From the IMG/VR virus record IMGVR_UViG_3300022745_000033: DNA of 64,000 nt, one strand, 5' to 3'. The notes under the pieces are model-generated. The model was not told the origin of the DNA and did no database searches. It saw only the letters and a list, made by a program, of their open reading frames with translations. Below are positions 9,872 to 55,312 of the stretch, one piece after another. Position 1 is the stretch's first letter. Every line of letters starts with the position of its first letter. The position numbers and the translations under genes are program-made. The stretch comes from an uncultured virus (IMG/VR IMGVR_UViG_3300022745_000033). Its lineage: Duplodnaviria > Heunggongvirae > Uroviricota > Caudoviricetes.

Positions 9872-11715
9872 TGGGTGCCGCAAAAGAAGTCACCAGCGCA
9901 TTTGCCCGTGCGCAGGACTACGTCACTTCTGCTACATCGCAGGCTAGTGCGTTCCTCTCGAACCTGAACGCGATTGACTGGTCTCTCCCGCCAATCTCAT
10001 ACAGTGCCGGGGCAATACCAGCACAGCCATCGGTCCCGAACCTCACTGCGCCGAACCTGACCAGTGTGATGTTCAACGCACCAGGGAGCCTGCCCAGTGC
10101 GCTGAGCCTTGACGCGCCCACGACCACAATCGACAACTTCACCGCCGCTGAGCCAACACTGTCGATGCCTGTTGCGCCGACGATCAGCTACGGCACCATC
10201 CCGACCATCCCGACCATCGACAGTGTGGCGGTGCCGGCCGCGCCAACGATCACCACCCCCTCACTGCCATCACTCTTGTCGCTGGGGGTCGTGGCCTTCG
10301 CGGGCGTGGATATCCATGCTGACTGGCTGACGCAGCTGGAGAACGTGCCCACGATGAACCTCGTGGCACCGACGCCGTACAGCTACGCTCGCGGCCCTGA
10401 GTACGCGTCGGCGCTCCTCTCACACTTGCAGACGCTGGTCAACAACCGCCTGAATGGTGGCACGGGTCTGGGCCCTGCGGTAGAGCAGGCCATCTGGGAT
10501 CGCAGCCGCGACCGCGAGACCAAGATTGCTCAGGCCAATGTTGACGAGGTGATGCGCAAGTCCGAGGCGCTAGGCTTCAAACTGCCCACGGGTGCTCTGA
10601 GCGCCCAACTGCGAGAAGCAGAGCAGGCCTACTATGACAAACTGTCTGAACTATCCCGTGACATCGCCATCAAGCAGGCTGACCTGGAACAGACTAATCT
10701 GAAGGAAACCATCACCGCTGGTATGCAGCTCGAAGCCACGCTGGTCGACCACTCCTACAAAATGGAGCAGCTGGCCTACGAGACTGCCAAGACCTACGCC
10801 GACAACGCCATCCAGGTCTACAACGCTCAGGTCGAAAATTTCCGTGTGTTGCTGCAGAGCTACTCGACCTATGCTGAGGCGTACAAGACGGTCATCCAAG
10901 CCGAGCTGGCCAAGGTGGAAGCCTACAAGGCACAGCTGCAAGGCGAGCAAGCCAAGGCTGACATCAACCGCAGTCTGGTCGAGCAGTACAAAGCTCAGAT
11001 CGAAGCCGGTATGGCTTCGGTCAAGATCTATGAAGCCCAGATCGGCGCGGCTCAGACACTGGTGCAGCTGGAGCAGGCCAAGATTGGCGCCGCCAGTGAA
11101 CAGATCAAAGCCTATGTGGCAGGCGTGAACGCCGAGACCTCCAAGGTGGAGGCATACAAGGCGAGCGTGCAGGCTGAGAGCACCAAGGTCGAGGTCTATC
11201 GCACGCAGGCCCAGGTGTTCAGCGCCAAGGTGGGTGCTCAGGCTGAAAAAGCCCGCACTGAACTGGCTCGTTACACAGCGCTGGTACAAGCCAAGGCCGC
11301 TGAGTGGGAAGGCTATAAGGCAGCGGTTGCCGCAGAGGGTGAGCGCGTCCGTTCCGTGATCGGCCAAAACTCCACCCTGGTGGACGCTTTCAAGGCCTCG
11401 GCGATGGCCGCTGAAGCCACTGCTGGCGCCCAGGCCCGTATCTGGGAAGCCGGTATCAAACAGTACGAAACCCAGCAAACCCTCACGCTGCAACAGAGCA
11501 AGATGAACAGCGACGTGCTGCTTGCCACAAAGCAGGCCCACGCCGACGCGGCCAAGACCGGTGCTCAGGTGTACGCCCAGATGATCTCGTCTGCATACAG
11601 CACCGTTCACGCAACTGCTGCGGAGTCTTTCTCCGAAGGCAACTCCGTGTCGTACAGCTACAGCAATGACACTGAGACCACCGCCCCGACAACCACCCTC
11701 GTCGGTATCGCGTAG
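9871..11715 (+). CDS. coiled-coil virion/ejection-type protein
   Basis: 614 aa; Pro-rich N-half, long Ala/Gln/Glu helical C-half with YKA-type repeats; GGAGG RBS. Confidence 0.55.
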   Translation: MGAAKEVTSAFARAQDYVTSATSQASAFLSNLNAIDWSLPPISYSAGAIPAQPSVPNLTAPNLTSVMFNAPGSLPSALSLDAPTTTIDNFTAAEPTLSMPVAPTISYGTIPTIPTIDSVAVPAAPTITTPSLPSLLSLGVVAFAGVDIHADWLTQLENVPTMNLVAPTPYSYARGPEYASALLSHLQTLVNNRLNGGTGLGPAVEQAIWDRSRDRETKIAQANVDEVMRKSEALGFKLPTGALSAQLREAEQAYYDKLSELSRDIAIKQADLEQTNLKETITAGMQLEATLVDHSYKMEQLAYETAKTYADNAIQVYNAQVENFRVLLQSYSTYAEAYKTVIQAELAKVEAYKAQLQGEQAKADINRSLVEQYKAQIEAGMASVKIYEAQIGAAQTLVQLEQAKIGAASEQIKAYVAGVNAETSKVEAYKASVQAESTKVEVYRTQAQVFSAKVGAQAEKARTELARYTALVQAKAAEWEGYKAAVAAEGERVRSVIGQNSTLVDAFKASAMAAEATAGAQARIWEAGIKQYETQQTLTLQQSKMNSDVLLATKQAHADAAKTGAQVYAQMISSAYSTVHATAAESFSEGNSVSYSYSNDTETTAPTTTLVGIA

Positions 11716-13858: not shown

Positions 13859-16800
13859 ATGGCAACCTTACGCACCCCGCTGTTCCGTCAACCCACTATC
13901 ACCGCTGACGACCTCGACGCACTCCGCGCAAGTGGCATGTCCAACCTGCGTCGCGGCTTCGAGTCCGGCCGCATCGGCAACGACATCACCGGCCTTGCAG
14001 CCGATGAAGCCAGCCTACGCGCCGACAACGACAACGTTCGCGCTGACGCCCTGCGCTCACAGATCAACGCACTGCAGCGCCGCCAGGGTTTTTACGCGCC
14101 AGACGTACAGGATGTCACCAAAGTCGGTAGTGTGGGCGACGCGGTGGACTGGGCGACTGGTGCGGTGGGGCAGGGCGTGGCATCCATGGCTGACCCCATG
14201 GCTGTCTCCACCGGCCTGAACGCTGCTGGTGGTCTGATCAGCATGGCACCCAACCCGCTGGCCAAGGCAGTGGGTACCAGCCTACGCTGGGCTGCACCGG
14301 TGGCCGCGTACGGCATCAACGCCCGTCACCTGAAGGGCGAGGTTTACAACGACATGATGGGAGACCCCACCATCATGGCCAACCACTCCGCACAGGAACT
14401 GAACCGCCAAGCCAACATCTACGGCGGCATCGCAGGTCTGGCCGACACAGCCTTCCCCGCTGTGGTGGGTCGTCAGCTCACAGGCGCAGGCTTCGGCAAG
14501 GGTCTGCTCAAGAACGGCGGCGCCCGTCTGGGTGCCGAGCTGCTGGGTGAAGGTGTTACCGAGGCGGGTCAGGGCTACGGCAGCGCGTACCTGCGCAACA
14601 CGCTGAACCCAAACGTCGAGCACAACGATTGGAACGAGCGCATCAACGACTTCGCTGGTGGCGTGGCCGGTGCCGGTCCGTTCGCTGTGGGCGGTCACTT
14701 CGCGGACCATGGCTTCCGCCGCATCGGCGATAGTGTGGAGCGGGTGACTGAGAAGGCCGGTCAGGTAAAAGACCTGCTGGACCAGAGTGGCGCGACTGGC
14801 GCTGTGAAGACTGGCGCTCAGAGCATCGTCGGCTTCGGCAAAGGTCTGCTTGGTCGCGGCAAGGACTCCGTGGTCGACCTGATGGGCGACGAGAACGGCA
14901 AGATCACTCCTGAATCCGTGAAGCAGTCGTTCCGCGACGCTACAGACGGCATCACCAAAGAGCAGGGCATCTCTCCCGAGGACCAGTCCATCCTGCGCGG
15001 CGATGTGCCTGTCGACCTGCGCGACAAGCTCGACTCGCCTGAGTTTGAATCATGGGCCACCCAACACCACGAGGAGCGCACGAACAAGGTGCTCGACCAT
15101 CTGGAAACCATGGCTGAAGGCGGCGACAAGCGTGCTGACGAGCTGTTCCTCAAGGTCAACGACGCGATGACCGTGCCCGAGCACACCGCCGCTGTGAACG
15201 AGGCGTCCAAGTACGTCCTCGACAACAATGAACTCCAGCGTGAGCTGTCCAACGCTGAAGCCTTCGGCAAGCTGGCCGGTATGGGCGGCAAGGCTGTGGG
15301 TAAAGGCGCTGTGGCGGCTGGCAAGATGGCTGCATCCTTCGGTAAATCCGTGTGGGATGGCATGAAGGAAGGTGCCAAGAAGAACATGCAGGGTTCGCTC
15401 GAAGGCTTCGACGACTTCGAGGGCGACCGCCAGTCCAAACTGGGCGGCAACTACATCCAGCAACAGGCTGCGATGAAGAAGAGCCGCGACCGTGCTGAGC
15501 TGATGGGCGAGTACCTCGCCGCTGTAACCAAGGCCGAAACGCCTCGCTTCTCCGCCCACAGGGCTGGAGCTGAGGCAGCACCCGCATACATGAAGTCTCT
15601 GGGCTTTGAGATCGCTGACCTCGCTGACAGCTGGGGTCTGGCCAACGAGAAGGGCACTGCCAAGGCAGCGATCCAACCGTCCGGCCCCGCCAGCACCATC
15701 CAGACGACTGAGGACAAGAGGGGTCAGCAATTCGACGGCTTGAAGCTGAATCTGAACCGCGTGGTGAACAGCCTGCGCGTCATGATGGGTCAGGACAAAG
15801 CAGCCGAAGCACTGAACCAGATGCAGTCGCTGTACCAGGGCGACAAGCGTATTGCCCCGTTGTTCGACTTCATGCGCGACGAGCTGGCTACGCAAGCCTC
15901 GCCCCAAGGCCGCGAACACACCGCCCAAATCCGTGACGAAGCTGCTCAGGCCATCCTGGACAAGCTGCCGCAGGAGAAAGAGCTGGAGCTGATGAAAAAC
16001 GGCATCTCCATGCGCACGCCCGAGGGCCGCAAGCAGCTGCTGAGCATGGTGGAGCAAATCTCTGCCAACCGTGCGCCGCGTGAAGCCCGGGTAGCTTTGG
16101 CCAAATTGGTCGGTAGTCAGAACCTGAACGAGATGCTGGGTGTGGTGAACGCCAACCTCGAAAAGTCCGGGCTGTCTGAGGTGACGGTAGATGACCGCGG
16201 ACAGACCGAAGACTATGACGGCAGTTACGCCATGGACGACAACGGTGATTTCATAGCCGCCCAGTCTGCCAACGACGTAGACAAGAGTCATGCAGAGCGT
16301 CTGGTTGCGAAGGGCAGCGGCCCAAAAATCTACGGCTACGACTACGGCTCTGGCATGCGTCACAGCACCGGCAAGACCGACCCGTTCGCATCGACTGACC
16401 GTGTGTCCAAGAAAGAGCTGGCTGCGTGGGCCAAAGAAAATGCTGACCGCGCTACGCTCGGTGAAGAGCTTCTGCCAGACCCACGTACTGACTGGCAAAA
16501 AGCCTCTGCCGGCCGTCCCAATCTGTTCATGCGCGGCCGCAAACTAGCTGACGGCACTGACGCCGTACAAAAGAAGATCACCGACATGGGCAAGCTGCTG
16601 GGTGTGGACCGCACACCTGAGAACGCTGTGCGCCTGCTGCGTGAGGAAAATAACGAAAAGGCTGCTGCAAATCTCGAAGCTCTAATTAAGAAATCAAACG
16701 AAGGTGACGAGGCTGCGAGGCAGCGGATCGACGACAACCTCGACGACTTCTATGAGACCCGCGCTGGCTCGTGGGACTTCAAGGCCAAGCCTGCATCCGA

Positions 16801-19800
16801 GGTGATGAAGGACCACAACTACTCGCTGGGGCAGAAGCTGGCTGCATTCCGCGACTACCTCTACGGCGACAAAGAACCTGTGAAGGCCCGTGCTGTGGCA
16901 GACATGCTGCTCGACATGATTGACATCCAGCGCAAGGGCGAACCTAACAAGCAGAACCAGACCCGCACGACTCCCAAGCTGCGCAAGCAGATCATGGCCG
17001 CGATGGACAAATACTTCAAAGAGCGCGACGTGGTGGTGGGTGAGCAGCTGTCCAACCGCGACAACACGCAGATGACTGCGCCGGAGCTGTTGGAGATGGC
17101 GACCCAAGGCCGCAAGGTGATGGACCTCGCACGCAAGCCCGAGAACGCCGACAAAGCAGCGGGCATGATCGACCGCGCCAACATCCTGACGTTCAAGTCC
17201 AAACTGTCCACCTCCAAGGACGGCCTGCTGCACATCCCGGCTGGTGCGCTGGTGTACTGGGTGAAGTCGCAGAAGGGTATGACCCAAGCGTCGAACATCG
17301 AAGACACCACCGACATGGGCAACAAGAACAAGAACCGCGAGTACCTGAGTGCGCTGCTGGAGGGCGTGTACCAGATCGCTGCCAGCGGCATGGCCGATGG
17401 TCTGCCCTACAAGCTCAATGCTCGTGGCGAGAAGGAATACTTTGCGGACAGCAAGAGCAACAAGCTGGGTGTCCCGCCCAGCTTGCGCCTTGCTACCGGC
17501 AAGGCTGAGCACGTGTCCCTCGACGCGTGGAAGGGTGAGGGCGAAAGCCCGGGCCAGTACAGCGACGAGTACGTCTTCGGTAAGGCCAACCCTGAGCTGT
17601 CCAAGGACGAAGTGGAGGCCATGATCGCCCAGATCAAGCAAGAGAAGGGCACCAAAGGATTTCAGATCGCGCTCAACCGTGCTGCCCGCAAGGCCAAGCT
17701 GGACCTGACCGACTCCAAGAAAGCCTTCAAGGTGGCTGTGGATCAGGCCCGCGGTGAAGACCCGTTCACCGCTGAGCCGCTGGAAGTGGTGGACCCCAAG
17801 CTGGAGAACCCCGACTACTTCTCGCCTGAGTCCAAGAAGGGTCAGGCCCAGCGTCTGGCCGAGCGCCGCAAGGGTGGCGTCAAGGCTGACCGCCGTGGCG
17901 AAGAGACCACCACGAGCAATCTGGGCTACCGCGTGAACCGCTCCGGCAAGATGGTGGCCGAGGCGCTGACCACCGACGGCCATGCCACGCCGCTGGACTT
18001 CTTCGGTAAGCTGCCCGACGGCGCCCAGCGTGATGAGTTCGCTGACGTGCTGGGTCGCACCAAAGAAGGCGGCGAGAGCGTCTACAGCATGCGCAACGTT
18101 GACCTGGGCCGCGAAGACGCGACCGATGCCTTGGAGAAGGCCAGCGACCGCAGCGAGAGCATCGTGGAGAAACTGGTAAGCAACCCGAACGAAGGTCTGT
18201 CCGATCTGGCATCGCGCCTGCGTACTGCCCTGCGCCCGGGCTTCGTGGAAGCTGCCAAGACCGAAAACCGCGTCCAGTACCAGCGCAACATCGAAGCAGC
18301 CAGGAAGCAGCCTGTCGGTGGCAAGCAGTACCTGTTCCCTGCGGCAGCAGCCCTGTCGCCCGAGAACCTCCAGCACGTGCTGGCCTCTGCGGACGTGGGT
18401 CCCGAGGAAGCCGTGGCGCTGAAGAACCAGCTGTTCGGCATGCGCAAGGCAGCGGCCGGCATCGCAGCCAGCTTGGACCTGACGCCCAAGCAGCGTGTGG
18501 CTGTGGCCCGCATGCTGGCGACTGCCGACAAGCGCGACAAGATCACGCTGGCAAATGCTCAGGAATACCTGATGAAGCTGGGTGAGAACGGAGCCGATAT
18601 CGACCCCGAGGACACCGCAAGCAAAGGTGGCCCTGACCTGAGCCGACAGTACCAACTGGGCAAGACCCCACTCAAACCCACGACCCGCCCGAAAGGCGGG
18701 CCGGGTGGCAACGTGCTACAGGGGCCGTTGTTTGACGGTTTGAACGGACCTCTGGGCGGTGGACGCACGGGTGAGGATGCTATGGGCGCTGCGGCCGAGG
18801 CCGCGATCCAACGCCTCGCTGATAAGGCCCGTAAAGGAGGTGCCGCCGCGCCCTTGGGAAAGTCCCAGCGAAATGGGGGCAAAGCTGATTGGTCTGAGGG
18901 TGGGCGTAAACTCAACGCTCAGTCCACGGCCATCCATGAAGAACTTGGCCGGGAGGGGTTCGCCGCCACGCATGACAGCCCGCACATTTTTGACGGGAAA
19001 TTCGACTGGCGCCGCAACACCGGCCGCGGTGAAGGGCGCCGCGATGCGGGCGTCGACGAGAACGACCAGAGCAACGTGGCACAGGCCCGTGGCGCTGGTA
19101 CCTACCTGAGCACTGCGGACGGAGTGCATGAGTTCTACAAGAACAACTTCACAGCGTTTTATCGCGGCGAGGACATAGACAGTTTGCAACGCCAGCTGAA
19201 GTCACGCAATGCCGAGGACGCCGCGCTTCGGTACGCTGCGGATGCGAAGAACTGGGAAAAGTACGACTACGCACTTGGGCACGGCATGTCGCTAAAAGGC
19301 GATGCTTCCGGTGATTATGGCTCGTTCGTCCGTGAGCATGACATACAGTCTGGCGACGAGCAATGGCGCACGCCGTGGTCGGAGCGTGACGACGGCGTGT
19401 ACTCCAGCTTCGCCGAAGCACATGAGGCTGAATATGGAGGGTCATTAAGGCGCCACGAAGAAGAGATCATCAGGCTCAAGAAAGCGATCTCCGAATACAA
19501 GGAAAAGCGCTGGGACAAGTCGCCGACCTATCAGGTCTCTGTAAACATCCCACATGAACATCTGCTCGATTGGGATAAACCAATGGCCGAGCAGAGCGCA
19601 CACGTGAGGGAGGCCCTCAAAGATGTCGCAAGGTCGCGGGTCGCGGGTGTGGAGGCCAATCTGAAGCGCAACGGGTATAGAGATGGGGACGTCGTACATG
19701 GTTCCGACGGCAAGAACTACACCGTGTTCGACGACGGGTCCACTGGTTCGTTTGACTTCGTTGACAGTAACAACCGCATCGTGCCGGAAGCGCGTGCAGC

Positions 19801-22681
19801 TGAGATTCTCAAATCAGTGCTTGGTGACAAATGGGTCGACAAGATTCTCATACATGAGACTGGTGGACAGCTCTACCAGCGCCTGTCTGGCGAACTCGGT
19901 AGTAATCGTAAAGCCTCCGACTTCATGCAAGAGCGTGGGGTGCTTGGCAACGTGCATAACTCAATGGGGAGCAAAAACTCCGAGTACCGCAACTACGTGA
20001 TCTACGATGACAGCAAGATAACCACGAACTACGTCCACTTCAACGCCCAAGACGGTAAAGGCAACGGCATGCCCTCCACCGAGGCTCAGCGTCAAGAGGC
20101 GCGTGCCTATGTGGAGAAGGTGCTAGGCAAGGACGTGCGTGTGGCCTTCGAGGAAGCTATGGGTCACTCCGGCGAGTGGGTGGACGTAGACAACCTGATC
20201 AAAATCTCGACCACGTCCGCTGCCGGGGCGCTGGAGACCGCCTACCACGAGGCGCTGCATGCGTTCTTCAGCAAGTACGTGAAGAACAACCCCCAGGTAT
20301 TTGAGGCGCTGAAGACCATCGCCGAGGACCCCAAGATCGTGGAGCGTCTGCATGCCCTGCTGGATGGTCACCCGGCCGCGCAGGCTCAGCTGGCCCACGG
20401 CGAGGAGCGTCTGGCCTACGCTTACCAGTTCTGGGCGGCAGGCAAACTGGACCTACCCTCCATGAAGGCCAGGAACTGGTTCCAGAAGCTGCGTAATCTG
20501 TTCAAGCGTGTGTTGGGTATGGTCAAGGACTCAGAACGCGCCACAGCTCTTTTTGAGGCTTTCCACGAAGGTAAGCTGTCTGAGCCCTCCGCTGCGGGCA
20601 AGGTGATTGCCGCAGAACTGGCAAAAGGCACCTTCACCAAGGCCCAGTTACGCAAAATTGATACCCTGGTGCAGTGGGTGGCTGGCAAGACCATGCCGTC
20701 CGAGGCTGTGCTGGCCACCAGTGTGAGCGCCCGGGCGCAGGCTCTGGCCCGCGAGCTGTACACGAACCCGGCTGACCCCGAGGGTGCGAAGGAGGAGGGC
20801 TACAGCAACGCCAAGAGCCGCCACGCCAAGCAGTACAGCAACCTGTTCAAGGACATCGTGAACGGCCTGTCAGACCGCGATCTGCACGATGTGGAGACCC
20901 ACTTGCAGAAGCAGACCGAGCTGACCGACATCCCGTACACCCCCGTGCGCAAGGCGGTCATGGACACCCGCAAACTCAACCAGCGCTTTTACCGCTACAT
21001 GACCGAGGAGCGCGGCATGAAGCTGGGCTACCTTGGTCCGAAATACTACCCCCGCGTGTGGAGCAAGAGCGCCATGCTGACCCGTGGCTTTGAGTTCGTG
21101 GAAATGCTCAAGGAACATTACCCTGATGTTCTGGCCGAAGGTGTGAAGGCCAGCAAGGGCAAGCTCTCGGGTGAGGACGTGGCGTGGCGCATCCACAGCG
21201 GTATCGTGAACGCTGGTGAGTTCATGCAGAAGCGTGGCCCGCAGCGTGATGACGGCGTGCTGGCGCCGTACTTCATGAGTAATCGCGTGCGCGACTTAGC
21301 ATGGCTGCAGACCGAGCATAGCGAGCCGTTCCAGGAAAAAAACCTGATCAAGACCATGACCAGCTATTACCACGACGGTGCACGCGCCGCTGAGTACACC
21401 AGCCGGTTCGGTCAGGACGGTGCGCTGCTGGATAGTGCAATTACCGAAATCCACAACGAGTTGAACGAGCACAGCCTCAACGAGCTGACCAAAGGTCGCT
21501 TCAAGGACGAAGCCCAGCGTGCCAAGTGGGTGAAGAGTCAGATGCGTGATGTGCGTGCAGCTGTGGCAGCGCAGGAGGGCACGTTGGGTAAGGACATCCC
21601 CCCAGCGTGGCGCAAGTTCAACAGTTGGGTGGTGGCCTACCAGAACGTGCGCCTGCTGCCCATGATGCTGTTCAGCTCCATGGTTGACCCCATGGCGATG
21701 GTGGCTCGTGGCGCCCCGATGCGCGAAGCATACGATGCCTATGTACGCGGCATGACCGAAGTGTTCCGCAACTGGGGCGATATGTTCCGCGACCAACCCA
21801 AAGAACGCCAAAAGGACAAGTGGGAGAAATTGGCAGAAGCATCCGGCATCGTGGATGCTGCACTGTTCAACACCCACGTGTCAGACGAGTACGCCTCGAT
21901 TTACATGGATGGCAAGGCCAAGAAGATCAACGACGCTCTTTTCAAGCTCAATGGTATGGAAGCGTGGGACCGTGGCATGCGCGTGGCGGCTACTCGCTCC
22001 GCTGCCATGTTCATTGCCCGTCACAAGGGACTGCCGGATGCTACCCACAGCGAGCGCTGGTTGTCTGAGCTGGGTCTCACACCCAAAGATATTGAGTTGG
22101 ATGATCGTGGTGAATTGATCACTGACAAGCACGACCTGATGGACAAGCTAGGGATCACTCAGGAAGAAGCCGAACGCCGCACGGACAAAATGAACTACGC
22201 GCTCTCGCGCTGGGTACAAGGCGCAGTGTTGTCGCCGAACGCCGCCCACCGCCCTGCATGGGGGAGTGACCCGCACTACAGCATGTTCTTCCACCTCAAG
22301 CAGTTCACCTACAGCTTTCACCAGACAGTGATCAAGAACGCGGTGCACGAGATGAATTACGGCAACATGATCCCATTGGGCACGTTCGCTTGGTATATCC
22401 CCGTCATGATTGCATCCGACATTACTAAAGGCCTGATTCAAGGCGGTGGTGAATTACCGGGTCACATGAAAGGTATGGACCTCGGTGCGTGGGTGGCGCA
22501 TGGTGCTGAGCGTGCCGGCATGCTGGGGTTGGGCAACATTGCGGTCGACGCAAATAAAGATATTTTTTCTACAGCTGGTCCCATGGTTGAACAGATCATG
22601 GATGCGTGGGGTGCGCCAGCTCGCAATACTGCGTTGAATGCGCTCCCACTGCATGGGCTTTATGCGGAGGCGATGAAATGA
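13859..22681 (+). CDS. giant polyvalent internal virion protein (ART-like module and zincin HExxH domain)
   Basis: 2940 aa at the end of the structural operon; THDSPHIFDGKFD..TGRGEG..GAGTYL and RNYVIYDD resemble polyvalent-protein ADP-ribosyltransferase-like domains; YHEALH metallopeptidase motif at 20243-20260. Confidence 0.7.
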   Translation: MATLRTPLFRQPTITADDLDALRASGMSNLRRGFESGRIGNDITGLAADEASLRADNDNVRADALRSQINALQRRQGFYAPDVQDVTKVGSVGDAVDWATGAVGQGVASMADPMAVSTGLNAAGGLISMAPNPLAKAVGTSLRWAAPVAAYGINARHLKGEVYNDMMGDPTIMANHSAQELNRQANIYGGIAGLADTAFPAVVGRQLTGAGFGKGLLKNGGARLGAELLGEGVTEAGQGYGSAYLRNTLNPNVEHNDWNERINDFAGGVAGAGPFAVGGHFADHGFRRIGDSVERVTEKAGQVKDLLDQSGATGAVKTGAQSIVGFGKGLLGRGKDSVVDLMGDENGKITPESVKQSFRDATDGITKEQGISPEDQSILRGDVPVDLRDKLDSPEFESWATQHHEERTNKVLDHLETMAEGGDKRADELFLKVNDAMTVPEHTAAVNEASKYVLDNNELQRELSNAEAFGKLAGMGGKAVGKGAVAAGKMAASFGKSVWDGMKEGAKKNMQGSLEGFDDFEGDRQSKLGGNYIQQQAAMKKSRDRAELMGEYLAAVTKAETPRFSAHRAGAEAAPAYMKSLGFEIADLADSWGLANEKGTAKAAIQPSGPASTIQTTEDKRGQQFDGLKLNLNRVVNSLRVMMGQDKAAEALNQMQSLYQGDKRIAPLFDFMRDELATQASPQGREHTAQIRDEAAQAILDKLPQEKELELMKNGISMRTPEGRKQLLSMVEQISANRAPREARVALAKLVGSQNLNEMLGVVNANLEKSGLSEVTVDDRGQTEDYDGSYAMDDNGDFIAAQSANDVDKSHAERLVAKGSGPKIYGYDYGSGMRHSTGKTDPFASTDRVSKKELAAWAKENADRATLGEELLPDPRTDWQKASAGRPNLFMRGRKLADGTDAVQKKITDMGKLLGVDRTPENAVRLLREENNEKAAANLEALIKKSNEGDEAARQRIDDNLDDFYETRAGSWDFKAKPASEVMKDHNYSLGQKLAAFRDYLYGDKEPVKARAVADMLLDMIDIQRKGEPNKQNQTRTTPKLRKQIMAAMDKYFKERDVVVGEQLSNRDNTQMTAPELLEMATQGRKVMDLARKPENADKAAGMIDRANILTFKSKLSTSKDGLLHIPAGALVYWVKSQKGMTQASNIEDTTDMGNKNKNREYLSALLEGVYQIAASGMADGLPYKLNARGEKEYFADSKSNKLGVPPSLRLATGKAEHVSLDAWKGEGESPGQYSDEYVFGKANPELSKDEVEAMIAQIKQEKGTKGFQIALNRAARKAKLDLTDSKKAFKVAVDQARGEDPFTAEPLEVVDPKLENPDYFSPESKKGQAQRLAERRKGGVKADRRGEETTTSNLGYRVNRSGKMVAEALTTDGHATPLDFFGKLPDGAQRDEFADVLGRTKEGGESVYSMRNVDLGREDATDALEKASDRSESIVEKLVSNPNEGLSDLASRLRTALRPGFVEAAKTENRVQYQRNIEAARKQPVGGKQYLFPAAAALSPENLQHVLASADVGPEEAVALKNQLFGMRKAAAGIAASLDLTPKQRVAVARMLATADKRDKITLANAQEYLMKLGENGADIDPEDTASKGGPDLSRQYQLGKTPLKPTTRPKGGPGGNVLQGPLFDGLNGPLGGGRTGEDAMGAAAEAAIQRLADKARKGGAAAPLGKSQRNGGKADWSEGGRKLNAQSTAIHEELGREGFAATHDSPHIFDGKFDWRRNTGRGEGRRDAGVDENDQSNVAQARGAGTYLSTADGVHEFYKNNFTAFYRGEDIDSLQRQLKSRNAEDAALRYAADAKNWEKYDYALGHGMSLKGDASGDYGSFVREHDIQSGDEQWRTPWSERDDGVYSSFAEAHEAEYGGSLRRHEEEIIRLKKAISEYKEKRWDKSPTYQVSVNIPHEHLLDWDKPMAEQSAHVREALKDVARSRVAGVEANLKRNGYRDGDVVHGSDGKNYTVFDDGSTGSFDFVDSNNRIVPEARAAEILKSVLGDKWVDKILIHETGGQLYQRLSGELGSNRKASDFMQERGVLGNVHNSMGSKNSEYRNYVIYDDSKITTNYVHFNAQDGKGNGMPSTEAQRQEARAYVEKVLGKDVRVAFEEAMGHSGEWVDVDNLIKISTTSAAGALETAYHEALHAFFSKYVKNNPQVFEALKTIAEDPKIVERLHALLDGHPAAQAQLAHGEERLAYAYQFWAAGKLDLPSMKARNWFQKLRNLFKRVLGMVKDSERATALFEAFHEGKLSEPSAAGKVIAAELAKGTFTKAQLRKIDTLVQWVAGKTMPSEAVLATSVSARAQALARELYTNPADPEGAKEEGYSNAKSRHAKQYSNLFKDIVNGLSDRDLHDVETHLQKQTELTDIPYTPVRKAVMDTRKLNQRFYRYMTEERGMKLGYLGPKYYPRVWSKSAMLTRGFEFVEMLKEHYPDVLAEGVKASKGKLSGEDVAWRIHSGIVNAGEFMQKRGPQRDDGVLAPYFMSNRVRDLAWLQTEHSEPFQEKNLIKTMTSYYHDGARAAEYTSRFGQDGALLDSAITEIHNELNEHSLNELTKGRFKDEAQRAKWVKSQMRDVRAAVAAQEGTLGKDIPPAWRKFNSWVVAYQNVRLLPMMLFSSMVDPMAMVARGAPMREAYDAYVRGMTEVFRNWGDMFRDQPKERQKDKWEKLAEASGIVDAALFNTHVSDEYASIYMDGKAKKINDALFKLNGMEAWDRGMRVAATRSAAMFIARHKGLPDATHSERWLSELGLTPKDIELDDRGELITDKHDLMDKLGITQEEAERRTDKMNYALSRWVQGAVLSPNAAHRPAWGSDPHYSMFFHLKQFTYSFHQTVIKNAVHEMNYGNMIPLGTFAWYIPVMIASDITKGLIQGGGELPGHMKGMDLGAWVAHGAERAGMLGLGNIAVDANKDIFSTAGPMVEQIMDAWGAPARNTALNALPLHGLYAEAMK

Positions 22682-22746: not shown

Positions 22747-22847
22747 CTATATATCTACTTATATTCTTATACTTATAAAACTAAACTATTAGTTTGAAAA
22801 ATAGATTAGTAAATAGATACTGAATAGAAATACCTATATAGAGATGG
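22747..22847. repeat. AT-rich element, copy 1
   Basis: Shares CTATATATCTA, TCTTATACTTATAA, TTTGAAA and TAGATACTGAWTAGAAAWACCTATATAGAGATGG with 50922-51027. Confidence 0.85.
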
Positions 22848-25406: not shown

Positions 25407-25455
25407 CACCTTGACATGGTGGGGGTCGTTGGTTCGAGTCCAATCGCGCCTACCA
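25407..25455 (+). mobile_element. attP core: 3' part of tRNA-Val(GAC)
   Basis: CACC-TTGACAT-GGTGG anticodon arm, GTTGG-TTCGAGT-CCAAT T arm, CGCGCCT-ACCA; 5' half absent; ~210 bp from the integrase stop. Confidence 0.9.
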
Positions 25456-25458
25456 AAT

Positions 25459-25502
25459 AAAAGCCCTGGAACCCAGCATTCATGCGGGTTCCAGGGCTTT
25501 TT
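25459..25502 (+). terminator. bidirectional-type terminator after attP core
   Basis: AAAAGCCCTGGAACCC...GGGTTCCAGGGCTTTTT. Confidence 0.85.
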
Positions 25503-25577: not shown

Positions 25578-25636
25578 CAGGTCATACTCCAGGTCATACT
25601 CCGGGTCGTTCTCAGGTCATACTCCGGGTCATAGCC
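25578..25636. repeat. right integrase arm-type tandem repeats (5 x ~12 bp)
   Basis: CAGGTCATACTC, CAGGTCATACTC, CGGGTCGTTCT, CAGGTCATACTC, CGGGTCATAGCC. Confidence 0.8.
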
Positions 25637-25665: not shown

Positions 25666-26652
25666 TCATTTCTTCTTCACGTTGTTGGCAAACGTAGCGA
25701 CGTATCCAGGCGTGTGGTGGGCGTAACGAAGCACCATGCGGAGGTCGCTCCACCCACCAAGCACCCTAAGCACTTCTAGCGGGGTACCGTTTTGGATGTG
25801 CCATGTCGCCCAGGTATGGCGGAAACCATGCCAAGTGAACCCCTCGTAGCCGTCCTCTGTGGTGTAACCTACGCCAGCGCGAACGCACGCAGCTTGAAAC
25901 GCCGTTTTCGGACTCTGAATCGGCCGGCCGCGGTACGTGAAGACCCACACCTCGTGTTGACCTTCTTGGCCTTTGAGGACTGCGACGGCATCATCATTGA
26001 GCGGGACTGCTATAGCTTCATCGCTTTTAGCGTCTTCCGCCTCGACCCAAACCAACTTCCTCTCAAGGTCGACACGCTTCCATTGAAGCCCAAAGACATT
26101 AGACTGTCTCAGTCCTGTACTGATCGCAAAGAGAGCCATGGGCTGAAGATGCTTTGGGAGTTCAGCGTAGAGTTTGTTCCATTGATCGTGCGCGATCCAA
26201 GCACGGGGTTTAGTTTTCTTGTCAGTTTTTGTTGCGAGCTTGGGTAGCTCGCGTAGCCAACCTTCATCTTTCGCCACATTCAGGATTGCCATGATCATGG
26301 TTCGGTAGCGGGTGTACGTACCGGCCGTCTTGCAGAAAGAAAGAGCGCTGTCGATGTTCTCCCGCGTGACAGATGTCAGCAACCGATCTGGATAGTTGCG
26401 CCCAAACTTCGCCAAACTCAGTAGTTCACTCTCACTGCGGGCCTCTTTGTTGACCCACTTCATCACAGCCATGCTCCAGGTTTTGCCCTTTAGCTTCGGG
26501 GTGGTCTTCCATAAATCTGCTTTGATCTCGTCATGGATTCGTTGCGCTTCTTTTTTATCAGCTGTTCCAGTTGTGCAACGTATCCGTGGGGCACCTGGGA
26601 TGGTGATGCTGACCCACCAGGGGCCGTCTGTTTTTTGTTGGTAGATAGACAT
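25666..26652 (-). CDS. int: tyrosine integrase
   Basis: TGLRQSN, WHGFRHTWATW, LGGWSDLRMVLRYAH catalytic motifs; start taken at MSIYQQK after GGAG. Confidence 0.95.
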   Translation of the reverse strand: MSIYQQKTDGPWWVSITIPGAPRIRCTTGTADKKEAQRIHDEIKADLWKTTPKLKGKTWSMAVMKWVNKEARSESELLSLAKFGRNYPDRLLTSVTRENIDSALSFCKTAGTYTRYRTMIMAILNVAKDEGWLRELPKLATKTDKKTKPRAWIAHDQWNKLYAELPKHLQPMALFAISTGLRQSNVFGLQWKRVDLERKLVWVEAEDAKSDEAIAVPLNDDAVAVLKGQEGQHEVWVFTYRGRPIQSPKTAFQAACVRAGVGYTTEDGYEGFTWHGFRHTWATWHIQNGTPLEVLRVLGGWSDLRMVLRYAHHTPGYVATFANNVKKK

Positions 26653-26825
26653 GATGCGTTCTCCAGATAGGAGCTGCGCATGAAGGCGATCAGATCGTCC
26701 TCCAGGAACGCCCAACTCCTACCTATCTTTGAACCAGGGATCAAGCCATCTCGCGCACGCTGCTGCAACGTATTCGGATGAATACGGAGCAAAGCAGCAG
26801 CATCAGCGAGACCGAGAGATTTCAT
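26490..26825 (-). CDS. xis: excisionase-like HTH protein
   Basis: LADAAALLRIHPNTLQQRARDGLIPGSKIGRSWAF is a MerR/Xis-type HTH; directly upstream of and overlapping int. Confidence 0.8.
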   Translation of the reverse strand: MKSLGLADAAALLRIHPNTLQQRARDGLIPGSKIGRSWAFLEDDLIAFMRSSYLENASCLSTNKKQTAPGGSASPSQVPHGYVAQLEQLIKKKRNESMTRSKQIYGRPPRS

Positions 26826-27466
26826 CCGAGATGCGCGTAGCTTTCTTCGAGCAGTTCATTCAGACGATCAACGCTTGCATCAGGGTGCTTGCTCATCAAG
26901 GCTTCCAGCACTTCGTTATCTTCGGCGCCACCCCATATTTTTTTATAGGTACCGCCTTTGTAGCCGTGAGATTGCCGAAACAAGTTCAGCAAGTTTTTCC
27001 CGACATACATTGAGTACAACTGCTCCCATGTAAGCCCGAAGCTCTTCATCAGTATGTTGAATGCGGGGCCGTTGAGCTGACGCTGAATTGCGGCACTTCC
27101 AGCCAAGAGATCAAACATCTGTTCAAGCTGAACGTTGGTGATCTCGCCAAAGGCGTCTGGGTCTGCCTCCAACGCCGCAAAATAATCCGTCACCACATTG
27201 GCCGTCCTGTCAACGTCACCGTCATGGTTGGCCAGTAGCAGGCTCAGAGCAAAGTGCCAGATGTCAACCAATTCCAGCTGAATCTGCCCAGGGCTGTAAA
27301 CTTGTTGGTCTTTCCACCATTTCCAACCGTAGTGGTCTAGCGCTTCCACAGCTTCGACATAGATCGCACGGTGCCATGGATAGTTAGCGGTAATCCAGTC
27401 AGGGTTGATAACGCAGTTGAGCTTGTCTTGCATTTGCAGCATGTCAACAATGTGTTGTCGGTTCAT
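26822..27466 (-). CDS. dimeric (all-alpha) dUTPase
   Basis: WKWWK, ELVDIWHF, YVGKNLLNLFRQ..GY motifs. Confidence 0.9.
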   Translation of the reverse strand: MNRQHIVDMLQMQDKLNCVINPDWITANYPWHRAIYVEAVEALDHYGWKWWKDQQVYSPGQIQLELVDIWHFALSLLLANHDGDVDRTANVVTDYFAALEADPDAFGEITNVQLEQMFDLLAGSAAIQRQLNGPAFNILMKSFGLTWEQLYSMYVGKNLLNLFRQSHGYKGGTYKKIWGGAEDNEVLEALMSKHPDASVDRLNELLEESYAHLG

Positions 27467-50921: not shown

Positions 50922-51027
50922 CTATATATCTATATACCTTATACTCTTATACTTATAATCTTATCTTATTATTTTGAAATAAAGATTAGATATTAGATAC
51001 TGATTAGAAAAACCTATATAGAGATGG
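50922..51027. repeat. AT-rich element, copy 2 (candidate origin)
   Basis: Homologous to 22747-22847; terminal inverted CTATATA/TATATAG; directly upstream of primase-helicase. Confidence 0.85.
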
Positions 51028-52013: not shown

Positions 52014-52076
52014 GATGATTCCTTTAATAAAGAGTTGATTGAGTGGGATGCAGTCACTCACTGCCTGGGGAACGGT

Positions 52077-52268
52077 TTAACGCAGCGGTGTGGCGCAGAT
52101 ACGGCCAAGCACGATTTGCTGTGCTTCTTCTTCAGAGACATCGAGCACCTCAGCAATTTGCTGGATCTTTGCCCACATCACTGCGTAGGGGTCTAGCTCT
52201 TCAACAGCCTCGTCTTCGATGAATTCGAGAGAGATGAACAGAGCGGGTGGTTGTTTTCGGATAGCCAT
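52077..52268 (-). CDS. early hypothetical protein
   Basis: AAGGAC RBS, start MAIRKQ, downstream of a repeat copy. Confidence 0.6.
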   Translation of the reverse strand: MAIRKQPPALFISLEFIEDEAVEELDPYAVMWAKIQQIAEVLDVSEEEAQQIVLGRICATPLR

Positions 52269-52343
52269 GAATGAGTCCTTTTGTATGTGCGAAATGCACA
52301 CGCCAAAAAGGCCCGAACGCATGTGCGCTCGGTATTTCTGGCT

Positions 52344-52580
52344 CTATGTGTTGTATTTGAAGAGCAGTCGTTCGTACTCTGCTTCGAGTAATTCGTCGTC
52401 GCCTTTAGCGAACGCTATTGCCTGCGCGTATAGGCGATCACGTAAGTGCGCACGCGGTGGTGTGATGACGACGTGACTTTTCAGTGGCGTTCTGATGTAG
52501 CCATTGAGTGGGTCAGTCAGCACTGGTTGGTTCATGCAAAGAGCGATGTATTTAGTCTCTTCGTCGCGCGTACGTCTCAT
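52344..52580 (-). CDS. early hypothetical protein
   Basis: AAGGAG RBS inside 69-bp repeat; start MRRTRD. Confidence 0.65.
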   Translation of the reverse strand: MRRTRDEETKYIALCMNQPVLTDPLNGYIRTPLKSHVVITPPRAHLRDRLYAQAIAFAKGDDELLEAEYERLLFKYNT

Positions 52581-52652
52581 GTGTTTACTCCTTGGGGTTA
52601 GATACACATGCGAAAAAGGCCCGAGCGCTTCAGCGCTCGGAACTTGGCTGAC

Positions 52653-52871
52653 TCAGTGAGCCATCTTGTGGCTGGGCTGGCGTGCAACGAATGCGTCGCG
52701 TGCAGCCTCGGTGTGGAAGAAGTGGATGCGTTCTGAGCCAGTACGTTCGTCAAACGTGTAGGCCTCGAACTCAGGCTCTTCGAAGTGAAGGTCCTGATGG
52801 TGAGAGCACGCATCCATGTGTGTGCCTTGGTTTGGGCAGGACAGGAAGTTGCAGCTACGGCAAGTGGTCAT
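52653..52871 (-). CDS. early hypothetical protein
   Basis: AAGGAG RBS inside 69-bp repeat; start MTTCRSC. Confidence 0.6.
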   Translation of the reverse strand: MTTCRSCNFLSCPNQGTHMDACSHHQDLHFEEPEFEAYTFDERTGSERIHFFHTEAARDAFVARQPSHKMAH

Positions 52872-52942
52872 GTGTTTACTCCTTGGGGTTAGATACACAT
52901 GCGAAAAAGGCCCGAGCGCTTCAGCGCTCGGAACTTCTCAGG

Positions 52943-53152
52943 CTAAGTACAGAGTGGTCGGAAGCACGGTGTGTTCATGTCAATGGTGTAGACATAGTCA
53001 CCGCGACGTACTTCGATGACCTGGACTGGGTATCCAACCAGATGGTTGTCGATCTTGTCCATTGCTTCTTCGAGCGTGTCGAATGTTGCGCAGAACTTCC
53101 AGTTAGGGTCGCCCTCTGCGTAGAGCGTTCCGCAAAACACGTTGTACTTCAT
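52943..53152 (-). CDS. early hypothetical protein
   Basis: Start MKYNVF, ATGA overlap with a 29-aa hydrophobic ORF (53149-53238). Confidence 0.55.
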   Translation of the reverse strand: MKYNVFCGTLYAEGDPNWKFCATFDTLEEAMDKIDNHLVGYPVQVIEVRRGDYVYTIDMNTPCFRPLCT

Positions 53153-53234
53153 GGCAGCACCATGAGCAGAGCGCAAAGAAAAATAGCTGCAGCGATGCAG
53201 CTATTGACGATGATCTCGCCGTGAGTGTCGAAAT

Positions 53235-53543
53235 TCATTTGAGTTCTCCTACTGAATACTTGATCCAACCGACGTGGTAATACCGGCCCTGTTCGAGGTA
53301 GCCGTAGAAACTGCGAGCCATGGACACGGTGACCATGGAGCAGATAAACGATGCAATGCCGGACATGGTTCCTATCAGCGTGCCCCAGTGAATCAATAGA
53401 TTTAAACTAAGAACAAACACGTGTAATAGGTTTCTTCTATCGCTGCCGAGCACCCGTAACCGAGTCCTCGGATTCAGCATGCTCAGCAGCACGAACTCGA
53501 ACAACACATTAAGTGCACCGAAGACAAAAACGGCTTCAATCAT
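53235..53543 (-). CDS. early membrane protein
   Basis: 102 aa, three hydrophobic segments. Confidence 0.65.
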   Translation of the reverse strand: MIEAVFVFGALNVLFEFVLLSMLNPRTRLRVLGSDRRNLLHVFVLSLNLLIHWGTLIGTMSGIASFICSMVTVSMARSFYGYLEQGRYYHVGWIKYSVGELK

Positions 53544-53721
53544 GGTTGCGCCCCTTCTCTAAATGTGCGAGAAGCGCGGTTTGAAGTTCCACGGCCACGT
53601 CGATGAGGCGCTCGACGCTTACCTCTACGTTGTAGTTATCGACGCTGTAGTCCAGCACCGTGTACCCTTCGTTGTCGATGATCTTGGCCTGCGCTTGTCC
53701 CAGTTTGATGATGATCTGCAT
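53536..53721 (-). CDS. early hypothetical protein
   Basis: 61 aa, AAGGAA RBS, downstream of a repeat copy. Confidence 0.6.
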   Translation of the reverse strand: MQIIIKLGQAQAKIIDNEGYTVLDYSVDNYNVEVSVERLIDVAVELQTALLAHLEKGRNHD

Positions 53722-53803
53722 ACCTGTTCCTTAGTTGATGGCATCAGCCCAGTGCTGATACACACGCCGAAAAGGACCGAGCGCCGAAGCGCCCGGTATT
53801 CAC

Positions 53804-54103
53804 TCACGCTGCCACCTGACGGATGACTGCCTGATTGCTGCCCTTCCATTGGTGGCGTTCCCAGACGGAGCCATCCGCCTTGGTGAAGCGCTTGACCGTG
53901 TGCGCAGGCTTCACAGCCTTGACCACGGGTGTGGGAGTTGCGATGCAGCCACGAGTGGCCAGCAGCGCGTCTTGCTCTGCAAGCTTTGCACGTTGCGCAC
54001 GGAACACCTCGGTTGCAAGTGCAAGCCGAGCTTCCAGTACAGTGACTTTGGCTTCCAGCTCTTTGTTGGCGGCGATGAGGGCGGGGCGGGTGATAGTTGC
54101 CAT
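53804..54103 (-). CDS. early coiled-coil hypothetical protein
   Basis: AAGGAG RBS, start MATITRP. Confidence 0.65.
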   Translation of the reverse strand: MATITRPALIAANKELEAKVTVLEARLALATEVFRAQRAKLAEQDALLATRGCIATPTPVVKAVKPAHTVKRFTKADGSVWERHQWKGSNQAVIRQVAA

Positions 54104-54223
54104 GGTGTTACTCCTTTGTTGGCGGGTTGGTTCACACGCCAAAAAGGCCCGAGCGCTTCAGCGCTCGGTTCCCCATTCCCCATAGTCCTCAAACAGAGGA
54201 GTAGGGCCGTAGCCCTACCTACC

Positions 54224-54457
54224 TCAGACTGCCTCAGCCTTCAGCTTCAGCTTGCGCTGACGCTGAGCGGGCACAACTTGGACAGCAGCGTCACGGCGTG
54301 CCGCCAGCTCTGCCGACTTGATCGTGTACTGCTCACTAGCAGACGAGACAACCTCTGCACCAAAACGCCCTGTAGCGTTAACAGAGACAACAGCACCATG
54401 TACTGCATACGCAGCGGTGTTAGCGACGAACTTACCAATAGCGGAACCTGCGGACAT
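54224..54457 (-). CDS. first early gene, hypothetical
   Basis: AAGGAG RBS, 77 aa. Confidence 0.65.
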   Translation of the reverse strand: MSAGSAIGKFVANTAAYAVHGAVVSVNATGRFGAEVVSSASEQYTIKSAELAARRDAAVQVVPAQRQRKLKLKAEAV

Positions 54458-54712
54458 ATCGAACTCCTTAATGAGATAACAGAGCGAACTTGCTCACACA
54501 ACTACCAAGACCCGAGCGCTTCAGCGCTCGGCTACACCGGTAGGGACTCCTACCCCCGAGCACAAACACGAACCCGAAGTGGGGGCTTCGTAAGCGCTAG
54601 GGGGAGGAGAGACTCACGAGTCGGTGTGGTTCTAAAAAATTTCTAAAAAATTTTCCTGCCCAGAAATTAAGCACCTCACCCTCCAATCCAAGTTCGATCT
54701 AAAATCGCGCCC

Positions 54713-55312
54713 ATGACTACCATGCGAAACACGGCGCAGATAAAACGTAAAGAGCGCACCAAAGCCTCTGACATCGCCAAACTGCGTAGCAAGGAAACCA
54801 CGACCATGGCCGCTGCGGCACGGGTCAGCCCAGACAAGCCCCTGACGGAGCAACAGCGCCTGTTTGTCCAGTTCTGGGCAGAAGGCGACTCCCTGCCAAA
54901 CGCCTACCAGCGTGCCGGCTACTCCACCGAGCAGGTCTCCTATGCGTACCGCATGACCAAGATGCCCAACATCCTGAAGCAGTACAACTTGGTGAAGGAA
55001 GAGTTCCGCAAGGCGGCTCAGATGACCCGCGAAGAGGTGATGCTGGGCCTCAAAGACGCCATTGACATGGCCAAGCTCATGTCTGAACCGGCCACCATGA
55101 TTGCTGGCTACCGTGAGATCGGTAAGCTGTGCGGCTACTACGAGCCGAAGAAAGTGGACATCAACGTGAATGTCAATGGAAGCGTCGCCATTGAGCGCAT
55201 GAACAAGATGACCGACGCGGAACTCCTCAAAATCATTGAAGAAGCGTCCCTAACCGGCGTGGATCAGGCCTTGATTGGCGTGGACCACGACGATGGCGAC
55301 GAAACCAACTGA
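54713..55312 (+). CDS. terS: terminase small subunit
   Basis: LTEQQRLFV..NAYQRAGYS HTH pattern, MTREEV and EIGKLCG motifs; upstream of TerL. Confidence 0.85.
   Translation: MTTMRNTAQIKRKERTKASDIAKLRSKETTTMAAAARVSPDKPLTEQQRLFVQFWAEGDSLPNAYQRAGYSTEQVSYAYRMTKMPNILKQYNLVKEEFRKAAQMTREEVMLGLKDAIDMAKLMSEPATMIAGYREIGKLCGYYEPKKVDINVNVNGSVAIERMNKMTDAELLKIIEEASLTGVDQALIGVDHDDGDETN

Follow-up and report, generated by a model that had tools for sequence, protein, structure and literature searches.

A structure-conserved hairpin unit leads early gene cassettes in a clade of podophages

The 64,000-nucleotide (nt) sequence of the uncultured virus IMGVR_UViG_3300022745_000033 (IMG/VR), referred to here as the window, belongs to a 64-kb podophage whose major capsid protein shares 64% identity with its counterparts in the Pseudomonas phages KPP25 and phiR18 (genus Kochitakasuvirus), and which encodes a tyrosine integrase and an excisionase. 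Here we analyse a repeated hairpin in its leftward arm of small open reading frames (ORFs), which is divergent from the gene for the terminase small subunit, terS (54713–55312, plus strand; PF03592). Six copies of the hairpin had been reported in a preliminary description of this DNA, and all six are present, at 52313–52332, 52621–52640, 52912–52931, 53777–53796, 54149–54168 and 54512–54531, with start-to-start spacings of 308, 291, 865, 372 and 363 nt. The 20-nt hairpin pattern, searched with up to three mismatches, yields nine strand-matches (five sites) compared with 0.00 in 100 shuffles; the copy at 52313 is more divergent.

All features of the arm lie on the minus strand and are described in its reading direction. 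A unit comprises an 8-base-pair (bp) GC stem with a 4-nt loop, 11–12 nt, a TGTG box, a leader, a ribosome binding site (RBS) and an ATG. The TGTG box begins 13 nt past the stem in five of the six copies and 12 nt past it in the sixth, and the start codon follows 41–55 nt past the stem. Hairpins start 7–12 nt after a stop codon in four of the five internal copies, stem and T-run are 3 bases apart, and lower-stem extensions of the 8-bp core are predicted in four of the six copies. The first unit to be encountered, unit 6 (54457–54531), has no gene upstream. Its hairpin (54531–54512, loop TGAA) is followed by a tail without a T-run (GTCTTGGTAGTTGTGTG), TGTG at +12, a small second hairpin from +17, the RBS and the ATG at 54457 of a 77-amino-acid (aa) ORF of family F3 (54224–54457; tblastn matches in 26 of 186 loci). 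Unit 5 (54103–54168; hairpin 54168–54149, GCCTTTTTGGCGTGTG tail, RBS, ATG 54103) precedes a 99-aa ORF of family F1 (53804–54103), for which there is no family match. Unit 4 (53721–53796; hairpin 53796–53777, C(UUCG)G loop, one G·U pair, second hairpin from +15, RBS, ATG 53721) precedes a 61-aa ORF (53536–53721) with tblastn matches in 0 of the 186 loci. The next two ORFs are a hydrophobic one of 102 aa, family F0 (53235–53543; 83 of 186 loci), which has no unit before it here, and one of 69 aa (52943–53152; 5 of 186 loci). Units 3 (52871–52931; hairpin 52931–52912) and 2 (52580–52640; hairpin 52640–52621) are identical over 69 nt (52868–52936 and 52577–52645) and enclose a 72-aa ORF (52653–52871; 3 of 186 loci). 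Unit 2 leads a 78-aa ORF (52344–52580), and unit 1 (52268–52332; hairpin 52332–52313, ACAT loop, one G·U pair) leads a 63-aa ORF of family F5 (52077–52268; 15 of 186 loci).

The claim that the early genes are each led by such a hairpin thus holds for six of the nine early ORFs examined and fails for the rest. None of the nine has a family match, apart from the 102-aa ORF (phrog_29412, E 0.001). The minus-strand G·U wobbles reported for two copies are found in those at 52313 and 53777, and the C(UUCG)G loop at 53777 is likewise present. What had been described as a T-A to A-T swap lies in the outermost two bases of the 4-nt loop (TGAA becomes ACAT) and in no stem pair; within the window, two-sided stem changes occur at none of the eight pairs of the 8-bp stem. 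The hairpins had also been suggested as a possible target of an RNA B. We did not identify this RNA and saw no partner for it: exact matches between a copy and the rest of the window extend to 11–12 nt at most. Two further features lie between the 77-aa gene and unit 5: a separate hairpin with a C(UACG)G loop and a weak U-run (54200–54219), 31 nt before the unit, which is a probable 3′ protector or terminator, and tandem ATGGGG-like repeats just upstream of this second unit (54170–54182), which also occur in the related loci L016, L019, L028 and L084.

The units extend across the clade. Relatives with terL were collected from viral (80 of 216), metagenome (80 of 221) and genome loci; the latter are 14 loci of genome_contigs, several of them in betaproteobacterial records (Herminiimonas, Janthinobacterium). 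A blind rule, requiring an intergenic hairpin of at least 7 out of 8 pairs with an RBS-ATG 34–64 nt later within the first 3 kb past a head element conserved between terS and the early arm (see below), returned 185 units in 75 of 81 non-redundant genomes, each with at least 1 kb of sequence; this set contains some terminators and a second hairpin family. A curated set holds 115 units from 42 genomes, hand-picked as within-genome families. Its inner stems are perfect in 88 of the 115 units and show all four Watson-Crick pair types at seven of the eight positions, and three at the eighth. Loops and tails are specific to the genome: two curated units of one genome have the same loop in 42 of 137 pairs, and units of different genomes in 266 of 6418. 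Of 78 within-genome pairs whose stems are unlike in at least two base pairs, 14 retain the same loop. Clustering on the tails alone recovers the families in 23 of 49 first-round genomes and in 14 of 32 new ones. The hairpin units are a real, clade-wide and structure-conserved leader of early gene cassettes.

Stems in the clade are mostly 8–12 bp long and loops span 3–9 nt, with 3-nt loops in 20 and 4-nt loops in 75 of 132. The first 16 nt from the stem base are 10% A and 67% pyrimidine (115 units), and a TG motif peaks at +13 to +16 in the curated units. A small second hairpin starts at +12 to +19 in 35 of the 115 units, representing 19 genomes (shuffles 5.4 ± 2.2, maximum 13), and has G as its first base in 20 of these 35. 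The ATG lies at a median of 45 nt from the stem base (range 34–64, n = 106). Spacer, TG peak and second hairpin therefore define a boundary near +14 to +17, which we read as an RNA 5′ end arising from either initiation or cleavage. Among the later units, 24 out of 73 follow a further hairpin, whose loop is UUCG, UACG or UAAC in some cases; several of these 24 lie in coding sequence and possibly occur by chance. The cultured phage phiR18 carries GGA-loop (triloop) hairpins before its first two early genes. In two relatives, near-identical stems bear the loop in opposite orientations, as if inverted (CTTG/CAAG and GTCA/TGAC; L086 offsets 821 and 1138, L088 offsets 970 and 1931), and in relative L011 runs of an 8-nt ACGAAGCA-like repeat precede early genes (4065–4129, 5608–5672) without clear hairpin units.

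No Rfam family reached its gathering score, the best hit over a unit being Acido-Lenti-1 at 22.9 bits where 37 are needed. Of the 50,697 phage records searched by blastn with this region, five matched, with only a terS piece meaningful. A 20-mer of the hairpin was found in one IMG/VR contig, which is 99.9% identical to the window and not independent of it. No description of the element was found in the literature searched, which covered few subscription papers and neither the original KPP25 report nor supplements; in three Kochitakasuvirus papers (PMC13730344, PMC13340246, PMC12870095), look-ups of the terms ‘promoter’ and ‘RNA polymerase’ gave 0 occurrences each.

Comparison of gene content with the two closest relatives, L016 and L019, supports the cassette organisation and gene shuffling that had been suggested. 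There are six units in the window, three in L016 and six in L019. With ^ denoting a unit, the order is ^F3 ^F1 ^61aa F0 69aa ^72aa ^78aa ^F5 in the window, ^F3 ^F1 F0 78aa ^F5 in L016, and ^F3 ^F1 ^F0 ^other 78aa ^other ^F5 in L019. The 61-aa, 69-aa and 72-aa ORFs are absent from both relatives, and the orthologues of the 78-aa ORF in both have no leading unit. The left boundary of the 568-nt difference between the window and L016 falls at an ATG where there is no unit; the units are therefore not the sole joints. Singletons make up 24% of 112 unit-led genes versus 42% of 188 unled genes, as judged by crude ORF calling, and together with the boundary at the ATG this argues against a simple socket model. 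In some runs the DNA contigs break at the 69-nt repeat, and no joint skipping 291 nt is seen. A single 619-nt joint in the reads was disregarded, as it has only 21 letters on one side.

Conventional promoter signals are missing from the units. The early arm of the window holds three sigma-70 promoter sites, compared with 2.8 in shuffles, none of them inside a unit, and TAnnnT is rare both in the tails (11 of 115) and in the upstream stretches (7 of 115). Among the collected head regions, weak sigma-70 matches in the early direction occur in 22 of 88; these are scattered, nearly all in the A/T tract, and have no conserved place. Other known signals, namely promoters for sigma 54, 32, 28 and extracytoplasmic function (ECF) factors, rrn boxB-boxA-boxC, lambda-type nut, integron attC and repetitive extragenic palindromic (REP) elements, were set aside for unfitting spacing or boxes, as judged by eye.

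Several features of loops and mismatches in relatives favour a hairpin formed in DNA or on the template strand. Tandem G·A pairs are stable, and the YNMG loops form a class of RNA loops. DNA-stable classes, as given in the accessible part of PMC3201870, account for 19 of 37 distinct short loops where 6.5 are expected, and RNA-stable classes for five where 1.9 are expected. For the units, DNA-stable loops number 26 of 52, far above coding hairpins (27 of 198). Closure of the loop by G..A favours the template over the sense strand at 23:15 in units of the blind set versus 10:21 in other intergenic hairpins (p = 0.03). Loops with the template-strand form GA..GA, namely GAGGTACGA, GAGGAACGA, GACGAAGGA or GAGGA, occur in 11 units of five genomes, and no genome has this form on the sense strand. 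In those that are 9 nt long, a GNA triloop is enclosed by an inner pair that is G-C in some and C-G in others. Loops that are rich in A and C on the sense strand are G/T-rich on the template. The stems of the blind set contain 19 C/T mismatches, equivalent to G·A on the template, versus one reading G·A on the sense strand, and the stem events of the curated set comprise eight G·U, six A·C, eight C/T and one purine pair.

Because the strand evidence is split, with signs of RNA pairing described below, we tentatively propose a dual role, the likeliest of the readings considered although short of even odds. The unit may act as a composite joint between early gene cassettes, which caps the upstream RNA and starts the next transcript as a DNA hairpin. 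The GC-rich inverted repeat would extrude as a DNA hairpin or cruciform, in which shape counts and the sequence of the stem does not. The extruded hairpin would set a transcription start approximately 14–17 nt downstream, at or just past the TGTG box, through melting of the A-poor spacer, and the putative reader is host RNA polymerase, possibly aided by an injected factor; the small second hairpin could then cap the 5′ end of the new mRNA. When transcription enters the unit from upstream, the repeat would fold in the RNA and pause, end or protect that transcript, and the shared copies would provide homology for gene gain and loss. This proposal is supported by the fixed geometry, by the lack of a conserved sigma-70 promoter and by a first unit that has no gene to terminate. 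It is doubtful, in our estimation, that a widespread, polymerase-less podophage clade has altogether replaced the −35 and −10 boxes with a cruciform that lies some 13 nt before a TG start box and is read by host RNA polymerase, possibly by way of a conserved 280-aa domain of an injected 2940-aa protein; such a start signal might also help to pull the genome in.

A number of observations weigh against initiation from a DNA hairpin. The genomes are related, counts were made without tree correction, and the list of 115 units was picked by hand. We know of no route by which a host polymerase would read such a hairpin promoter. Among the window ORFs scanned (23, 20, 46 and 18 proteins, in overlapping sets), neither an RNA polymerase nor a sigma factor was recognised. 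The 2940-aa virion protein (13859–22681, plus strand), which has 47 relatives at E ≤ 0.001, lacks a conserved DxDxD motif across 40 long relatives, and its C-terminal 701 aa resemble T7 gp16-type and PhiM1 ejection proteins (Z 9.4–9.6 to gp16-type proteins, root-mean-square deviation 4.9–6.0, approximately 290–300 aligned residues). The preliminary description had stated that variation preserves pairing of the minus-strand RNA, and this is so in the window and in the blind set, where G·U outnumbers A·C on the sense strand at 21:7 (coding control 85:82, p = 0.02; terminator-like hairpins 48:10), but not in the curated set (8:6). The ratio is 8:1 in families defined by their tails, and both variant copies in the window fold better on the sense strand. 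A mutation bias of the non-template strand could be the source of both the G·U and the C/T excess. DNA-stable loops are not significantly more frequent in units than in other intergenic hairpins (26 of 52 versus 27 of 76, p = 0.14), and folding energies show no bias by strand. Lastly, a contig of an RNA library (53704–53867, depth 3.9) bridges unit 4, although it may be DNA. The reads comprise six runs, all as contigs. Only one is of RNA; its coverage extends to 14 of 30 bins, at a depth of 0.4–5, cannot show ends or strand, and carries no meaning where it is missing.

Three other explanations were considered. Somewhat unlikely by our assessment, yet a serious rival, is that the units are joints for RNA processing and stabilisation, a role that had already been suggested for them. 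A single transcript would start at the head element, and a ribonuclease of host or phage would cleave its single-stranded linkers; the 3′ end left upstream would be shielded by the large hairpin, and the 5′ end downstream by the small one. This would account for the sense-strand G·U bias, for the hairpins close behind stop codons, for the hairpin-linker-hairpin anatomy and, weakly, for the RNA contig across unit 4, and it requires no new polymerase. It is opposed by an A-poor linker, unlike typical RNase E sites, by the failure to find an upstream promoter in the window scan or in the head regions, and by the loops, which lack RNA-stable motifs and several of which make sense on the template strand only. 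T7 early RNA, which is cut before its genes, sets a precedent (accessible parts of PMC5371410 and PMC3643576), and its RNase III sites share with the units the position of a structured site before early genes in the early arm of a podophage; the stems here are shorter and GC-rich, at or below the 22-nt RNase III minimum (PMC5371410), although the lower-stem extensions predicted in four window copies would lengthen them, and upstream host promoters were not found.

The preliminary description had offered serial terminators or attenuators as another reading, and no start-signal role. It is unlikely that the units form a series of leaky intrinsic terminators, of attenuators or of pauses stabilised by hairpins, by which expression would be graded within a single early operon. 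The fit within the window is superficial: four of the six copies pass a lenient terminator scan, the stems are placed shortly after stop codons as in intrinsic terminators, and the G·U bias agrees with folding in RNA, but the U-rich run does not directly follow the stem, from which it is separated by 3 bases. Across the clade the U-run is not conserved. TTTT within 12 nt of the stem is a lineage-specific trait, present in 21 of the 115 units and in 9 of the 42 genomes, the first 8 nt after the stem hold at least six T in 9 and at least five T in 27 of the 115 curated units, and the relative L028 carries CCTAAAG in place of the T-run. Of 149 genome-loop combinations, a single one has a UNCG loop, versus 13 of 154 for other intergenic hairpins of the same loci (p = 0.001). 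Terminators would moreover leave the TGTG box and the second hairpin unexplained, as well as a first unit with nothing upstream. More improbable still is that the units are mainly recombination joints, that is, a translation leader with a generic protective hairpin that was spread by duplication or gene conversion and carries no specific signal. In favour are a patchily distributed gene enclosed by units 2 and 3, which are identical over 69 nt, and the sharing of loops within genomes; covariation at eight stem positions with mostly perfect stems, the 14 of 78 within-genome pairs that keep the loop while their stems differ, constant geometry over 75 genomes and an indel boundary at an ATG instead of a unit all speak against them.

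In their working, the proposed composite joints resemble two known systems and belong to neither; the comparisons that follow rest on the accessible parts of the papers cited. Promoter-early stem-loop (PeSL) cassettes of T4-type phages (PMC2839356, PMC4122927) likewise place a repeated intergenic stem-loop, RBS and ATG before small, variable early genes, have indels bounded by copies, and likely combine a stop with a start. Gain or loss of a gene between two copies is seen here for the 72-aa gene, though not at every boundary. Unlike the present units, PeSL cassettes contain consensus sigma-70 −35 and −10 boxes and an AT-rich upstream element; here the spacing between stem and TGTG box is fixed, and the loops are genome-specific. 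The early promoters of coliphage N4 are hairpins read by a virion RNA polymerase; they form on the template strand, their 3-nt loop has its centre at −11, and four A's precede the start (PMC4496689). As in N4, several copies lie near the putative first-entering end, and stem bases are free if paired. In addition, CC-AAAA(A)-GG precedes the stem on the template strand of the window, and DNA-stable loops occur, such as GNA in relatives and the GGA triloops of phiR18. In contrast, stem length, loop length and a spacer of roughly 13–16 nt depart from the N4 geometry, and no T7-like virion polymerase was recognised here by family match or motif, the giant virion protein ending in a gp16-like domain. 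The Frpo/ssi single-strand promoters of plasmid leading regions, whose folds present −35 and −10 boxes on single-stranded DNA (PMC11541004), are also structure-dependent signals repeated before the first-expressed small genes, and are read by the host polymerase; the short hairpins described here lack these hexamers, and phage DNA is double-stranded.

For early gene expression in these phages, neither a sigma-70 promoter nor a phage polymerase is evident. Judged from sequence, the two-part signal of a strong hairpin and a likely RNA start some 13 bases on, shared by a large group of mostly uncultured phages, resembles neither a usual terminator nor a usual host promoter and may be an undescribed, shape-based start signal. 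If true, a promoter that the host enzyme recognises by its shape would be novel in transcription biology, could serve as a compact tool, and would add a third kind of structure-defined promoter to N4 hairpins and Frpo. Even as processing joints, the units would mark sockets for swapping candidate host-takeover genes. They provide exact predicted start or cut positions together with natural compensatory variants in dozens of genomes. As phiR18 and KPP25 are cultured and share the head element, and phiR18 has GGA-loop hairpins, the question is directly testable.

The head element lies at 54543–54615 on the minus strand and reads GAGTCTC ... CCCCACTTCGGGTTCG (54584–54569) ... GAGTCCC, with an A/T tract at approximately 54636–54655 alongside. 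Its general layout, conserved between terS and the early arm, is an A/T tract, a GAGTCTC-type palindrome, CCCCACTTCGGATTCG and a second palindrome. A strict core is matched in 59 of 80 viral loci, a few of the matches being off-site, and 88 distinct versions were collected; the element folds with a z of −4.2 in the window and below −2 in 43% of relatives. It also occurs in L001 at about 11510–11530. The record of Aeromonas phage phiA008 ends approximately 80 nt beyond an A/T tract of this kind, and the 2.5 kb upstream of terL contain a contig end in 27 of 80 loci, versus 14 of 80 on the downstream side. The head element is probably the packaging or genome-end site (pac, cos or terminal repeat) of an arm that enters early, and the repeats would thus probably lead early genes reading away from a packaging end beside terS. 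DNA runs X2 and X3 cross the element, so that we can only infer a genome end. Alternatively, it could be the missing early promoter.

Other parts of the window add minor observations. Folding of the 2940-aa protein covered its 281-aa conserved middle domain (approximately aa 940–1220) and the C-terminal 701 aa. The middle domain is modelled at a pLDDT of 84 and gave no Foldseek match at E ≤ 0.001 (best Z 4.7), which is no proof of absence; the Atlas is blank for aa 800–1690 and for a 296-aa early protein. An HExxH motif near aa 2130 of the large protein is also conserved, and its variable insert, at approximately aa 1690–2060, looks like an ADP-ribosyltransferase-type module. A second hairpin family stands before the last early gene of about 300 aa, at 52050–52064 (minus strand) in the window and, as offsets from the head motif, at L059 3444, L084 1351, L089 2793 and L091 1882; in relatives it has CNNG-type loops and a conserved T·G pair, followed by a small ATCC-loop hairpin. 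No cI-like repressor was recognised among the window ORFs scanned. At 25417–25500 and 25666–26828, a stretch resembling a tRNA 3′ half that ends in ACCA, a likeness judged by eye, and a terminator lie beside the integrase and excisionase genes. This is probably attP, and short tandem GGTCATACTCC-like repeats seen by eye nearby (25586–25632) are possibly integrase arm sites. Finally, a very AT-rich element of about 100 nt occurs twice with 81% identity, upstream of a primase-like gene (50922–51027) and after the giant virion gene (22747–22847), and possibly represents an origin or a promoter.

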